Part shown: positions 16,782 to 24,109 of the stretch, piece after piece
How the letters are laid out: each line of letters begins with the position of its first letter
How positions within the stretch are numbered: the first letter of the stretch is position 1
Sequence record: PQ805430.1
Direction: 5' to 3' (one strand)
Source: Escherichia phage EK8
DNA: 64,000 bases
Notes under the pieces: model-generated
What the model was told of the DNA's origin: nothing
The model's database searches: none
Seen by the model: the letters and a program-made list of their open reading frames with translations, nothing else
Position numbers and translations under genes: made by a program

Positions 16782-16796
16782 AGGCGCTATGCGCCT
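16782..16796 (-). promoter_or_regulatory. hairpin element aggcgc-TAT-gcgcct (candidate hairpin promoter)
   Basis: GC stem with 3-nt loop, 66 bp upstream of gene start at 16717; shares cgcTATgcg core with two other copies. Confidence 0.3.
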
Positions 16797-17146: not shown

Positions 17147-17161
17147 ACGCGCTATGCGCGT
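17147..17161 (-). promoter_or_regulatory. hairpin element acgcgc-TAT-gcgcgt (candidate hairpin promoter)
   Basis: same cgcTATgcg core, 69 bp upstream of gene start at 17079. Confidence 0.3.
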
Positions 17162-20702: not shown

Positions 20703-21091
20703 TCAAATGTTACCTTTTTCCAATACTGCATATTGATATAACCACCCTTACGAATATGTTTATCGATACGGTTAAGCGTATGCTCCACCTGAGCTTTAAG
20801 TTCTGGCTTGCAGCCGTCACGGTACTCAGCGGAATGCGCGAGGTAATAATCCTCGCCATAGATCGTTATCTCGATCCGATTGATGTAATACTGCTGTCCC
20901 AGGTGCGTCTGCATCAGACGACGAGCAATACGAGGGAATGTCAATGCGCGAGCATGTTCACGCTCTAAACGCATTTCGAAGCCCGCAGCACGGGCTTTAA
21001 CGATTTCGTCATGTACCATTAAATGTGATTGCATAATATGTCCCCAGTCCCGAAGCGATGATGAACAACCATACAGCGAGAATAATGGCAA
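20699..21091 (-). CDS. hypothetical early protein (130 aa; true start probably an internal Met)
   Basis: ORF; annotated 5' end overlaps upstream gene. Confidence 0.45.
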   Translation of the reverse strand: MPLFSLYGCSSSLRDWGHIMQSHLMVHDEIVKARAAGFEMRLEREHARALTFPRIARRLMQTHLGQQYYINRIEITIYGEDYYLAHSAEYRDGCKPELKAQVEHTLNRIDKHIRKGGYINMQYWKKVTFE

Positions 21092-21224
21092 TAATGCCTA
21101 TCTCCAGTGCATGGTTAGGTTTGGTTCCGAACATGCGAGCACGTTCTTCCTCATGCCGAATACCCCAATAGAGCATCGGCACAACGATGATAGTGAACAA
21201 CGCAAAGCCTAAGAGGTAACCCAT
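21009..21224 (-). CDS. small membrane protein (71 aa, start re-assigned to internal ATG)
   Basis: GAGGA RBS 6 nt before ATG at 21224; two hydrophobic helices; ORF-track start 21299 adds an implausible Cys-rich leader. Confidence 0.4.
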   Translation of the reverse strand: MGYLLGFALFTIIVVPMLYWGIRHEEERARMFGTKPNHALEIGIIAIILAVWLFIIASGLGTYYAITFNGT

Positions 21225-21358
21225 ACTTAGTCCTCGTACTGATTCATGCTTACCAGACGGACAGCAGCGAAGGTTGCTACTACGGATACAGCAGCCCATA
21301 CGAGCAGACCGGTTAAAATAGTCATAATTAATACCTCTGGTTTAAATGGAATCACCCG

Positions 21359-21371
21359 ACTCGCTATGCGA
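21359..21371 (-). promoter_or_regulatory. hairpin element ctcgc-TAT-gcgag (candidate hairpin promoter)
   Basis: same cgcTATgcg core, in spacer upstream of small membrane-protein genes. Confidence 0.3.
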
Positions 21372-21387
21372 GCCAGGTTTTGATTAT

Positions 21388-22011
21388 TTATGCACGGATG
21401 ACAAGTTGCATGTCTGGTACAGTCAAAGCAGCGTTCGTGTCCTGCACGTAGACTGCGTTATGTGGGTCACCCTCTTCCAGTGTCTTCTGTAACTTTTGAC
21501 GACCACCATACGCATATCCCTGGGCCATATAGAACAGAGTACCATCAGGTAGGTCACCAAACCGCTCCACACGCGGTAAATCGCTTGCACCTACATCAAC
21601 TACAGGCAGATTGAGTTCAGTCGCTCTGTGAGCGATACAGGCGCTTTTAGAGGGATTGACCATCTCGCTACGCTCAATGGTCGCTTCGCTGCACTTCATG
21701 CAATTACAAGCATCACCACATACAGATAAGTCAGTAAGTGGTTTGATTGGACGACAGAACTCAATAACATCTGACCAGCCATCTACAGGCTCATTATCAC
21801 CGTGGAACAGTGTGATGTAGTGGAAGTCAGATTCACGCTGTCCTAACAGCCATGCGTATACAGATGCTTTATCTTCAAACTCTTTCTCTGTCGAGTGAGT
21901 TGCATCAAAGGTCAGATAGTCCAGTACGAATAACGTAGTCATAGTATGTCTCCAATAAGTTAAGTGTATTACTTCACTTAAAGTGCTATGCACTACTACC
22001 GGTCGTAACAC
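21388..22011 (-). CDS. hypothetical early protein with Cys cluster (207 aa)
   Basis: ORF; CGDACNCMKC motif. Confidence 0.45.
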   Translation of the reverse strand: MLRPVVVHSTLSEVIHLTYWRHTMTTLFVLDYLTFDATHSTEKEFEDKASVYAWLLGQRESDFHYITLFHGDNEPVDGWSDVIEFCRPIKPLTDLSVCGDACNCMKCSEATIERSEMVNPSKSACIAHRATELNLPVVDVGASDLPRVERFGDLPDGTLFYMAQGYAYGGRQKLQKTLEEGDPHNAVYVQDTNAALTVPDMQLVIRA

Positions 22012-22038
22012 TACGGTACTACGTACCTACGTGTTACT

Positions 22039-22090
22039 GACTAACCAATACTTCGTACTACGCTTCGCTACGTACTCGTATTGGTTAGTC
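22039..22090. repeat. perfect 13-bp inverted repeat gactaaccaatac / gtattggttagtc with 26-bp spacer
   Basis: read directly at 22039..22051 and 22078..22090. Confidence 0.8.
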
Positions 22091-22118
22091 TTACATCCCT
22101 AGTTATGTATACACATAC

Positions 22119-22259
22119 TAATAGTAAGGTTATTAGATATAAGGTAGATATGAGTTATAGATATAGGATAGGTATAGGTATAGAGATAGTAGTTGATAGG
22201 GTATAGGTAGAGATAAGTGATATAGATATAGATAAAGTAGTAGTAAGAGTAAGTAGTAA
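22119..22259. repeat. cytosine-free microsatellite-like tract (GTA/TAG/ATA units)
   Basis: 141 bp with no C on plus strand; only 4 C in 22119..22320; units taggta, gatatag, gtagtaa. Confidence 0.8.
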
Positions 22260-22520
22260 CAAAGTAGTAAGTAAGTAGAGATAGTAGTAACAGGTAGATA
22301 CTAAACATAAGTAAGTAGTGTTTTACTCAGTAAATACATCCTAATCTCTGTCAACCTTTTCCACTAATATAAATTTCCGATAAGGGTTATCGATAAAAGT
22401 GGTATAGGAAACTTACTGTATGATTTCTGACCGTCATACCTAGCGCGAGTAAAAGCTGTAAAGTTTTGGTAACTTATAGCGCGCCTTACTGTCTCAGTGG
22501 TGAGTTGTGTAATGTGTAAT

Positions 22521-22557
22521 TGTGTAGAAAAGAAATAGCCTACTCCGAAGAGTAGGC
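22521..22557 (-). terminator. rho-independent terminator after the first early gene
   Basis: 8-bp stem gcctactc/gagtaggc, loop cgaa, then ctatttcttttct on minus strand. Confidence 0.5.
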
Positions 22558-22564
22558 ATTGATG

Positions 22565-22819
22565 TTATGCAGTAGCAGTAGCTGATGCAGCCAGAGCTTT
22601 GACTTGGTTATCAAGCTCAGACTTAGCTGCGTTGTAAATCATCTGGTCTTTGATTTCGATGAGTTCACCGAAGCGTTTAGCTTTGTTCTCTGCTACCTTA
22701 GCCAGCTCATCACCAGCAGTAGCCAGACGATTGACTGCGGTTGCAGTTGTGGTGACAGTGGATACGGTTGCAACTACAGCACCAGTGAGAGCAGCGAACA
22801 GACCTTGTGGTTGGGACAT
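22565..22819 (-). CDS. hypothetical small protein (84 aa), apparently monocistronic
   Basis: ORF followed immediately by a terminator. Confidence 0.5.
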   Translation of the reverse strand: MSQPQGLFAALTGAVVATVSTVTTTATAVNRLATAGDELAKVAENKAKRFGELIEIKDQMIYNAAKSELDNQVKALAASATATA

Positions 22820-22991
22820 GAGTAATACTCCATAGCTATTGGATTAATGTAAGGGATGAAGGCATCTCACCTTCAAGACTCTGAAGCCTCCCACATCGCA
22901 GAGCTACGATTGTGGGTGCATACATGTGATTAATCTCAAGCAGACAATGTATGAAAACACTGAATGAGATGGATACGTATATCCATATGAT

Positions 22992-23002
22992 GGCCTATGG
23001 CC
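22992..23002 (-). promoter_or_regulatory. hairpin element ggcc-TAT-ggcc (weaker relative of the cgcTATgcg hairpins)
   Basis: 4-bp GC stem, TAT loop, about 175 bp upstream of gene start 22819. Confidence 0.2.
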
Positions 23003-23133
23003 TGAATTGTGTAAGGCGTAGTAAGAATCCTTTTTCAGCCAGCACTATGGAGGGGGTATCCACCCAAAGCTACAGCCAGAGTAGTAAGTTGAGCACTCGT
23101 ACCTAAATTAAAAAATTTTATAAAAGTTTTCCC

Positions 23134-23334
23134 TTAAACTTTTTTATCTCTATCCAGCGGAGCTATCCTGTTTACCCACCCTTCAAACTTATCCCTGAGT
23201 TTATCCATACCGTTCCAAATACTTTCAAAGATATAAGCAAGCACTAACGCTATACCACCCACCAACCATATCACTAACCAAACTGGCAGCAGAGAGATAC
23301 GGATAGCCTTGCTCTTGGTACTCATGCGATACAT
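23134..23334 (-). CDS. small membrane protein (66 aa)
   Basis: one strong TM helix; GAGG RBS; flanked by AT-rich sequence. Confidence 0.4.
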   Translation of the reverse strand: MYRMSTKSKAIRISLLPVWLVIWLVGGIALVLAYIFESIWNGMDKLRDKFEGWVNRIAPLDRDKKV

Positions 23335-23362
23335 AAAATTTTCCTCATAAAATTTTTAAAAA

Positions 23363-23391
23363 TTGCCCAACCTTTCGACCCTATTTATACT
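23363..23391 (+). promoter_or_regulatory. sigma70-like promoter candidate for the late operon
   Basis: -35 ttgccc (23363..23368), 17-bp spacer, -10 tatact (23386..23391), about 30 bp before the first late gene. Confidence 0.3.
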
Positions 23392-23422
23392 CTGGCTTAG
23401 AACCTATAGGGAGACTATATCA

Positions 23423-24109
23423 ATGGCATTGCTCGATTTAAATACACTCAAAGCTGCGTTGCCTGACAACATCCGTAAGACTATCACTGATGAAGTGTTG
23501 AATGGGATTAACGCTGCTGTGGCTGACCCCCAGTTTTACGAGTATTACCGTAACAACCTGTTGAGCTATGGCCATGTGCTGAAAGAAGGGAAGTTTACGG
23601 TTAAGCAGTACAGTGCAGCAGTCCGGTATGTGTCGTATAAGCTGATGGGCTTAACGAACCAGGAAGCGTGGATGAAGACCTTCCCGGACAAGTATGCGTA
23701 CTTCGCTCAGAAGGGCACCAGTGCAAAAGACATTTCAAGTTACGTCCATGCGTACCATAATACTAAACTGGTAAACCTGGTAATGGAGCAGTCGCTTGTT
23801 CCTGTGCATGTGGTAGGCCGTGACCTGTTCTGGAAAGCTCTCAACGTTCAGGCTGAGTTAATGGTCAGTGCTACCAGTGAAAAGGTACGCAGCGATGCTG
23901 CGAACAGCGTACTGAACACGTTGCGCCCGCCTGAGACTAAGAAGATGGAACTGGATATCAACCACAAGGACGATGGTACGCTGGAGGCGTTGCGTGCTGC
24001 TACGCAGGCTCTGGTAGACCAGCAATCGAATGCGATTGCTAGTGGGACAGTAACAGCAGGGCAGGTGGCCGCGTACCGTGTCATTGAAGCGGAGAAACTC
24101 GATGAGTAA
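23423..24109 (+). CDS. putative terminase small subunit (229 aa)
   Basis: first gene of late operon, directly upstream of large terminase; GGGAGA RBS 8 nt before ATG at 23423 (ORF-track start 23363 is a TTG). Confidence 0.35.
   Translation: MALLDLNTLKAALPDNIRKTITDEVLNGINAAVADPQFYEYYRNNLLSYGHVLKEGKFTVKQYSAAVRYVSYKLMGLTNQEAWMKTFPDKYAYFAQKGTSAKDISSYVHAYHNTKLVNLVMEQSLVPVHVVGRDLFWKALNVQAELMVSATSEKVRSDAANSVLNTLRPPETKKMELDINHKDDGTLEALRAATQALVDQQSNAIASGTVTAGQVAAYRVIEAEKLDE

Follow-up and report, generated by a model that had tools for sequence, protein, structure and literature searches.

The early/late junction and its cytosine-free tract

The 64,000-nucleotide stretch of Escherichia phage EK8 DNA analysed here (record PQ805430.1), hereafter the window, has a tract without a single cytosine in its plus strand at positions 22119-22259. 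The tract lies between two gene blocks of opposite orientation. Early genes are encoded by the minus strand to its left, the first one at 21388-21942 (184 amino acids, ribosome-binding site GGAG at 21950-21953), while the terminase genes are found on the plus strand to its right, starting at approximately 23423 for the small subunit and 24409 for the large subunit. A preliminary description of the window, made from its letters alone, had placed the tract at the divergent early/late junction of an N4-type genome, an assignment that the leftward early genes and rightward terminase genes confirm. The DNA around the tract matches N4-like phages of the genus Cbunavirus (Schitoviridae), namely the Pectobacterium phages CB1, CB3, CB4, Nepra, Possum, Horatius and phiA41, Kosakonia phage Kc283 and Enterobacter phage SABI.

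The records of CB1, CB3, CB4 and Possum open with a direct terminal repeat (DTR) of 636-648 bp. The window is an assembly in which the DTR is collapsed to one copy, and the position of the repeat in EK8 is a projection from the annotation of these relatives with an uncertainty of ~70 bp. Its inner boundary, which is the genome right-end cut site in the concatemer, projects to 22319 from CB1 and CB4 and to 22391 from CB3 and Possum. The outer boundary, or physical left end zone, covers 23086-23152 (23086 from CB1 and CB4, 23130 from Possum and 23143 from CB3). These positions are approximate because the boundaries annotated in the relatives, estimated only from doubled read depth (PMC6027278, PMC9569702), differ by ~70 bp between near-identical phages. 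The order from left to right is early genes, hairpin promoter P1, hairpin H, tract, inner DTR boundary, DTR, outer DTR boundary and terminase genes. The physical genome ends map beside the tract, as the preliminary description had anticipated. Its further suggestion that the tract is terminal-repeat sequence does not hold by the relatives' annotation: the annotated repeats end to the right of the C-free run, and the tract adjoins the DTR but sits in unique DNA.

The C-free run has exactly the extent first assigned to it, 141 nt with 59 A, 43 T and 39 G, which leaves the minus strand free of G. Depletion continues to the right, with only 4 C among the 202 nt of 22119-22320, also as first counted, against 24.4% C in the whole window. 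The runner-up C-free runs of the window have 44 and 43 nt, runs without any one of the other bases reach at most 44 nt, and under an independent-base model ~1e-13 runs of at least 141 nt without C are expected for 64 kb. The label "microsatellite-like" used in the preliminary description is roughly appropriate. Tandem Repeats Finder detects overlapping degenerate periods of 4, 6, 7, 11, 17 and 24 nt with 65-88% matches, in agreement with a tract built from degenerate short units, but there is no single repeat unit. Autocorrelation, computed for the window and for 8 relatives, has no dominant lag and only weak peaks at 4, 6, 11-12, 15 and 17; helical phasing was rejected accordingly. In this tandem-repeat test the flanks resemble slippage-prone repeats and the core is a fixed sequence. 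A structure-forming homopurine/homopyrimidine region, another early proposal, has to be abandoned, the tract strand being 70% purine and 30% T with purine runs of at most 5 nt in 22119-22320. H-DNA or another triplex is ruled out because such structures require uninterrupted purine runs of ~15 nt or more, usually as mirror repeats.

The tract is non-coding, as previously supposed. An ATG-initiated open reading frame (ORF) on the minus strand at 22099-22308 would code for 69 amino acids rich in Tyr, Leu and Ile and exists in this window only. In the relatives no ATG ORF spans the core in a consistent phase, the ORF of the closest relative being in a different one, and their deposited genomes have no gene annotated at the tract. 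A protein-coding tract was rejected since the 69-amino acid ORF is kept neither in presence nor in frame. Rfam gave no match at E up to 1 within 21000-24000, and the core motifs are not enriched elsewhere in the genome, for instance at middle promoters. The other AT-rich islands of the window are coding or ordinary intergenic DNA, unlike the tract.

Nearest-neighbour energies identify the tract as the least stable duplex of the 64 kb at scales of 50, 100, 150 and 200 bp (z from 4.7 to 5.6). It has 36 TpA steps per 141 nt compared to a mean of 8. Single-strand folds computed over 202 nt amount to -1.1 kcal/mol for the plus strand and -0.6 kcal/mol for the minus strand, weaker than those of their own shuffles; neither strand can form G-C pairs with itself because one is without C and the other without G. 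Opening under negative superhelical stress was calculated with a one-bubble model of the stress-induced duplex destabilization type, which uses AT/GC energies only, in domains of 5 kb and of 1.2 kb, the latter as a stand-in for the first-injected DNA. In the 5-kb domain the segment 23103-23149 is predicted to open at sigma -0.045 to -0.055, and a bubble of ~230 bp at sigma -0.065. This bubble covers 22100-22335, the full C-poor and TpA-rich stretch that is the stability minimum of the 64 kb. The projected outer DTR boundary falls on the 50-mer with the second lowest stability, 23103-23152. The tract has thus the stability minimum of a DNA-unwinding element and, according to the model, would open when negatively supercoiled. 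The least stable duplex and two structure-free strands give physical support to the strand-asymmetric unwinding element of the preliminary description.

Conservation of the tract and of the adjacent hairpins

The preliminary description had called for a comparison of the tract across related phages. A C-free run of 65-167 nt is present at the same place and in the same orientation in all 11 relatives examined, with 70-105 nt in the deposited genomes and 65, 95 and 167 nt in three metagenomic viral contigs. These contigs were found by an exact-pattern scan of viral contigs with the core, which matched only relatives. Alignment of the 12 Cbunavirus-type sequences reveals an invariant 21-mer, TATAGGATAGGTATAGGTATA with one R position (22162-22182, plus strand), in the middle of a core of ~55 nt from which C is always absent, and conserved core positions extend to ...GATArGrTAkAGG. 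The left edge of the core is marked by a second invariant motif, TAAGGTA (22140-22146, plus strand). Both are invariant although the coding DNA of the same sequences is just 76-85% identical. Among the ~55 always-C-free columns 19 vary (A/G, A/T or G/T) and none has a C allele, while 3 of the 8 variable columns directly left of the core carry C alleles; some of the variable columns are linked by register shifts. As judged from these columns, C is excluded from the core beyond neutral substitution expectation, though slippage of C-free units contributes.

The flanks of the core vary in length and sequence in every phage. Variation concerns chiefly the hypervariable right flank (22236-22320, plus strand), composed of AGTA, GTA and TAAG units, which differs in each relative, is always C-poor and has an organization consistent with replication slippage. 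The tract is probably a working DNA element. The record PQ898399.1 (Enterobacter phage SonariX, 248,734 bp) holds the same locus as the 76-kb genome of SABI with identical similarity values and may be a concatenated or chimeric assembly.

The segment 21965-22125 folds into three hairpins (z = -4.3). Two conserved hairpins directly left of the tract, one of which is the annotated first early promoter, had been overlooked initially. P1 (21982-21994, plus strand) is an N4-type hairpin promoter for the virion RNA polymerase (vRNAP) with the sequence AGTGC-TAT-GCACT on the template strand, from which transcription proceeds to the left, through the first early gene. Its homologue in CB1, CB3 and CB4 is annotated as promoter_1; in SABI and in contig L012 the stem is different and the hairpin is kept. 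H (22005-22037, plus strand), located between P1 and the tract, is a compound hairpin with a 7-bp outer stem, a TAC/TAC internal loop, a 5-bp inner stem and a 3-nt loop. Three sequence variants of H occur in the relatives with every position of the stems paired, 6 of the 12 pairs are changed on both sides, and sliding the partners abolishes pairing.

H is found 54-119 nt from the tract, with P1 just beyond, in all 12 Cbunavirus-type sequences, whereas the distance from the tract to a conserved block within the DTR (22419-22557, see below) is far more variable, from ~150 to 400 nt or more. The G-free strand is in every case the non-template, early-sense strand, which is 70% pyrimidine. The tract itself is hairpin-free and does not have the features of a vRNAP promoter (stem of 5-7 bp, 3-nt loop, central template purine); hairpins of this type lie beside it at 21982-21994 and 22015-22027. 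Perfect plus-strand hairpins of the form nnnGC-TAT-GCnnn are found at 16782-16796, 17147-17161, 21360-21372 and 21982-21994. The hairpin at 21360 matches the annotated promoter_2 of CB3 and the two near 17 kb are ~5 kb into the early/middle region; by their pattern the four look like the vRNAP early promoter set. With two conserved hairpins directly to its left, a promoter-linked role of the tract is at least as likely as the roles put forward in the preliminary description.

A looser equivalent of the tract is found in Efbeekayvirus-type contigs, which were recovered by a profile scan with the small terminase subunit. Their C-free run of 56-88 nt, including GTATAGGTGTGATTAGGTATGAGGTAGG and GGTATAGGGAGAG, has a hairpin 30-50 nt away, ATTACCC-TGT-GGGTAAT, in which a stem of 7 bp carries a loop of 3 nt. 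The same pattern, patchy, extends over 300-700 bp in the Klebsiella phages pKP-BM327-1.2 and P184 as well as in Erwinia phage MIF8. Positional homology of the core across genera was rejected: blocks are apparent in MAFFT alignments, but their local scores are those of dinucleotide shuffles (p 0.02-0.49), so that only composition, orientation, position and motif vocabulary are claimed to be shared. In Pseudomonas phage LUZ7, nt 695-800 of the early-sense strand are G-poor (25 A, 45 C, 7 G and 29 T, with G-free runs of 40 and 25 nt). This stretch begins 35 nt past the 660-bp terminal repeat, mapped by run-off sequencing according to the note in the record, and is upstream of the first unique ORF. 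Strand-biased spacers that follow the left repeat may, from these examples, be widespread in Schitoviridae. The first 88 nt of N4 and G7C, also G-poor, were rejected as a precedent. They have TACAC repeats, closer to the (TACACA)n of 22505-22526 on the minus strand than to the tract, and for that reason this left end is not counted as support.

Candidate functions of the tract

N4 vRNAP is inactive on relaxed duplex DNA, and the N4 promoters need hairpin extrusion through gyrase-generated negative supercoiling on the left end, which enters first; the single-stranded DNA-binding protein of E. coli (EcoSSB; SSB below for the host protein) is required for vRNAP and melts the non-template hairpin while it spares the template hairpin (PMC4496689). 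Supercoiling of the linear N4 genome demands a topological constraint that is unexplained according to the same authors (PMC4496689). The tract might, as a tentative proposal, be a strand-opening and SSB-loading element that aids the supercoil-dependent activation of P1, the first vRNAP promoter. It would then be a cis-acting, strand-asymmetric unwinding element directly upstream of P1, on the genome end that enters the cell first. Host gyrase would supercoil the first ~1 kb of injected DNA, and the tract, having the least stable duplex and no strand fold-back, would open first or breathe most. Host SSB would be offered an unstructured landing site of at least 65 nt, preferentially on the pyrimidine-rich non-template strand. 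The open, SSB-coated tract would lower the kinetic barrier to the extrusion of H and P1 that vRNAP needs for early transcription, and the invariant 21-mer may add a sequence-specific contact with some partner. Opening in vivo, loading of SSB and any effect on P1 are conceivable steps, each to be taken as possible rather than likely.

This activation role is ranked first because it explains the instability of the duplex, the structure-free strands, the constant orientation and the SSB-sized runs, and because linkage to the hairpins is tight in both genera while the distance to the repeat is variable. The EcoSSB tetramer has a binding mode with a site of 65 nt, and the shortest C-free runs of the relatives (56-105 nt) would correspond to about one such site.

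Several points weigh against an SSB-loading function. The hairpins of P1 type at 21360, 17147 and 16782 have no such tract and the N4 genome has none comparable to the C-free spacer; given its absence at these hairpins and from N4, the tract is no general requirement of vRNAP promoters. Fragments with N4 promoters are reported to be active in vitro even when upstream sequence is missing. In the 1.2-kb domain of the model the tract is the preferred opening site, but a sigma of ~-0.065 is needed. Thermodynamically, the melting of a long AT-rich bubble is in competition with the extrusion of a small hairpin, which leaves only a kinetic benefit or one that passes through SSB. A bulk physical role leaves the invariant 21-mer unexplained. 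Finally, proximity to P1 does not discriminate this function from one in packaging, because the tract adjoins the DTR boundary too.

A bolder version, which is still less likely, is that the tract would represent a previously unrecognised class of promoter-auxiliary element, a strand-pure (three-letter), structure-free and supercoil-sensing pad at which strand-specific SSB loading would license the first hairpin promoter, and which might double as a start site for vRNAP-primed replication. Such a pad, if real, would explain how linear DNA that has just been injected can activate a promoter with a few cycles of gyrase. N4-type phages are the classical example of promoters that function exclusively as extruded hairpins, with supercoiled DNA and host SSB. 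Their activation on the first few hundred bp of an injected linear genome has so far been explained only by an assumed topological constraint (PMC4496689), and the tract is a testable candidate for part of the mechanism that activates the first promoter.

The location of the tract also suits an element of the terminal-repeat junction that flanks the right-end cut site and acts in concatemer processing or packaging, a role that has some chance of being correct, though a small one. It could be a strand-separation zone for duplication of the DTR by strand displacement, a zone of heterogeneous right-end cutting, or a set of terminase-binding repeats on the non-packaged side. The pac sites of phages P1 and SPP1 are short-repeat arrays, as expected under the last variant. 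The DTR boundaries of the relatives (22319 and 22391) are 0-130 bp from the tract, and the two least stable segments, the tract and 23103-23152, bracket the DTR. The SRL short-repeat array of phage T7 lies directly inside the left repeat with the same strand bias, the G-poor stretch of LUZ7 at 695-800 begins 35 nt past a run-off-mapped repeat boundary, and N4 has heterogeneous right ends and a unique left end (PMC3896407). However, the strand asymmetry has no obvious part in cutting and the boundaries are read-depth estimates ~70 bp apart between near-identical phages. Neither is there a comparable array across the DTR: the G-poor stretch 23127-23334 was rejected as a mirror-image array since it is a minus-strand coding ORF, and the motifs of the tract do not recur in 23090-23400. 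In Efbeekayvirus the core adjoins the promoter hairpin and is at least ~330 nt away from the conserved DTR block.

That block, the non-coding segment 22419-22557 inside the DTR, competes with the tract as a candidate packaging site. It includes TGACCGTCATACCTAGCGCGAGTAAA, TAGCGCGCCTTACTGTC, (TTGTGTA)n and a terminator hairpin. Its 139 nt are 79.6% identical to Erwinia phage MIF8 (E = 5e-21), and it is the only part of the region with significant DNA similarity to another genus, being conserved to Efbeekayvirus. This cross-genus similarity makes it a better packaging-site candidate than the tract, and a terminase recognition or packaging site is a plausible assignment on grounds of conservation. 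The block has also a second copy of TAGCGCG, followed by 3-5 TTGTGTA heptamers that form a 43-nt C-free run (22496-22538) and then by the terminator. Read on the other strand (TACACA) the heptamers are similar to the TACAC repeats that N4 and G7C have at their left end.

A third role is that of a replication-origin unwinding element which would constitute, together with P1, an origin of T7 type, where P1 transcripts or R-loops prime synthesis and helicase/primase loads at the tract. This is unlikely. The lowest helical stability, the strand asymmetry, iterated short motifs (TATAGG, TAGGTA and GATAG) and flanking palindromes are classical origin anatomy. In T7, phiOL, a secondary replication origin, is next to the SRL array at the left end, where the record annotates a promoter at nt 405. 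The cumulative GC-skew minimum of the window is near 22000, a position that also coincides with the switch of coding strand, and the transcription machinery of N4 has been tied to its DNA replication (reviewed in PMC4496689). On the other hand, the tract is upstream of P1 while the corresponding region is downstream in T7 origins, and the two hairpins are directed away from the tract. No DnaA box was found within 1 kb of the tract, nor is there a known initiator; a "DnaA-trio" interpretation of its TAG/TAA run was rejected on account of this lack of a DnaA box and of low autocorrelation at lag 3. N4 shares the replication genes yet is without the tract, and in vitro the synthesis of its DNA begins from the ends of the genome, primed by hairpins (summarised in PMC3896407).

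It is equally doubtful that the tract has no function and is either a low-complexity spacer made by slippage or the C-to-U deamination footprint of an often single-stranded strand, tolerated in the gap between the repeat and P1. The hypervariable length and flanks, with C-free runs of 65-167 nt and expansions of short units, are as expected of a spacer; slippage of C-free units yields only C-free DNA, similarity across genera is at the level of dinucleotide shuffles, and N4 does without the tract. What argues for function is that 12 of 12 Cbunavirus-type sequences, and the sister genus too, agree in the position and orientation of the tract, that the 21-mer and TAAGGTA do not vary in genomes whose coding identity is 76-85%, that the 19 variable core columns never have C, and that a compact phage genome keeps 250-700 bp of non-coding DNA here.

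The weakest candidate is an untranslatable Rho-loading insulator, similar to Rho utilization (rut) sites, which would stop read-through of the host polymerase from the DTR gene before it reaches P1. The minus strand has the composition for it: 28% C and no G over the tract (28-33% C in the comparison with rut sites, which take at least ~80 nt of RNA with an excess of C over G), 22 YC dinucleotides, no ATG, GTG or TTG, no Shine-Dalgarno sequence, and a fold of ~0 kcal/mol computed on the DNA strand, so that the leftward RNA would be structure-free and untranslated. The tract is also downstream of a gene and its terminator (22538-22557), it has the largest C-minus-G bubble of the window (0.33), and the same strand is rich in C and poor in G in the LUZ7 stretch and in T7 SRL. 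A Rho site is nevertheless very improbable: no convincing leftward sigma-70 promoter was found, the intrinsic terminator upstream looks efficient, early and middle transcription of N4 type is carried out by phage polymerases that are normally insensitive to Rho with the host polymerase acting on the opposite strand, the C-minus-G bubble barely exceeds others of the window, and rut sites do not need an invariant 21-mer.

Further features are found on both sides of the tract. On its promoter side, H might serve as an additional vRNAP promoter or have a structural part. No record annotates H separately, although most of it falls within the broad promoter_1 feature of CB1, and in contig L012 its inner hairpin is inverted with the loop TTC. 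H is separated from the tract by a palindrome present in this window alone (22039-22090), with perfect 13-bp arms at 22039-22051 (GACTAACCAATAC) and 22078-22090 (GTATTGGTTAGTC) that enclose 26 nt. The same gap has unrelated palindromic insertions in CB3/CB4, in Nepra, in MIF8 (at ~1441-1513) and in L026, often with a CTACG/CGTAG centre. From these sequences the gap between H and the tract seems to be a hotspot at which small palindromes are inserted or hairpins duplicated. Pfam and PHROGs searches with the neighbouring proteins gave no clue to DNA binding.

On the repeat side, the motif CTGTCAAC at 22346-22355 (TTGACAG on the minus strand) hardly varies among the Cbunavirus relatives, all of which keep TTGACA; Efbeekayvirus has a TTGACAC motif in the opposite orientation. 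In none of the relatives is the invariant TTGACA (22346-22351, minus strand) accompanied by a -10 element at usable spacing, and the motif is for this reason probably a protein-binding site rather than a sigma-70 promoter. Sigma-70 promoters are not enriched (4 found against 5.1 expected). The DTR encodes a small membrane protein (phrog_16196; 22565-22819, minus strand) whose gene has the intrinsic terminator 22538-22557 at its end. Within the presumed DTR, ~145 bp (22845-22989) that appear as a gap between BLAST segments have no counterpart in CB1, CB3, CB4 and Possum, which implies that the DTR of EK8 would be of ~750-770 bp and not of 647 bp. At 23046-23066 the minus strand reads GGGTGGATACCCCCTCC (CCTGGTGGATACCCCCC in CB1), which resembles the experimentally known left terminus of N4, TGGTGGGGCTACACCCC; this resemblance hints that the true left end is ~20 bp inside the CB1/CB4 estimate. 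The second least stable 50-mer (23103-23152) is 84% AT and has an inverted repeat of A and T only, AAAAGTTT...AAACTTTT. The physical left end annotated for CB3 and Possum falls on this 50-mer, which is found just past the stop of the small minus-strand ORF 23134-23334.

Relation to known systems

No published description of the tract was found in the searchable literature, where there is also nothing on Efbeekayvirus terminal repeats and nothing useful on the function of T7 SRL. The papers on CB1, CB3, CB4 and Possum mention only repeats and hairpin promoters (PMC6027278, PMC9569702). For practical use, the tract offers a marker with length polymorphism and should be spared when Cbunavirus phages are engineered for biocontrol.

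The likeness to rut sites resides in the leftward RNA, which would be G-free, untranslatable, unstructured, longer than 80 nt and YC-rich; its 28% C is modest by comparison with classical rut sites. The pac arrays, such as the hexamers of phage P1 and pacL/pacR of SPP1, are like the tract clusters of 5-7-bp motifs near a terminase cut site, which is putative here, and pacL of SPP1 is on the non-packaged side, as the tract would be. P1 and SPP1 differ in that they have headful permutation while N4-type phages have fixed terminal repeats, and the element conserved across genera is the block 22419-22557 instead.

Two further relations concern DNA opening. Lilley and co-workers are said to have found that AT-rich "inducing" flanks confer C-type cruciform extrusion, in vitro at low salt. 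Like these flanks, the tract is AT-rich, easily opened and within ~100 bp of an inverted repeat that extrudes under negative supercoiling, but the promoter hairpins of N4 extrude at physiological superhelicity without AT-rich inducing flanks (PMC4496689), and the C-type concept includes neither strand asymmetry nor a conserved sequence. Origin unwinding elements (the oriC 13-mers, lambda ori and the AT-rich regions of T7) share with the tract a stability minimum and strand asymmetry, and adjoin iterated motifs, palindromes and a promoter. They are typically much shorter than the 140-230 bp of the tract, which has no recognised initiator sites and no DnaA boxes and lies upstream rather than downstream of the phage-polymerase promoter.

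The closest known analogue of the tract, by organization, is the T7 SRL array, reportedly described by Dunn and Studier in 1983 at nt ~161-345, adjoining the 160-bp terminal repetition. Both are non-coding arrays of degenerate short repeats directly inside the left repeat and upstream of the first early promoters, and in both the early-sense strand is depleted of G (T7 161-345 has 71 A, 57 C, 20 G and 37 T, while the tract has no G). SRL differs by its clear heptamer, CCTAAAG, in ~13 copies, by being C-rich rather than rich in AT and TpA, and by its partner array SRR before the right repeat; no such partner of the tract was found in 23090-23400. The early promoters of T7 are of the host-polymerase type and not hairpins as in Cbunavirus, and the two arrays have no sequence similarity. 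If the function of the tract were at the repeat junction or in replication, it would be a cis site not yet defined in any Schitoviridae and a counterpart for T7 SRL. What is new in the tract is a strand-pure and easily melted form of the strand-biased short-repeat array beside a terminal repeat, coupled here to hairpin promoters.

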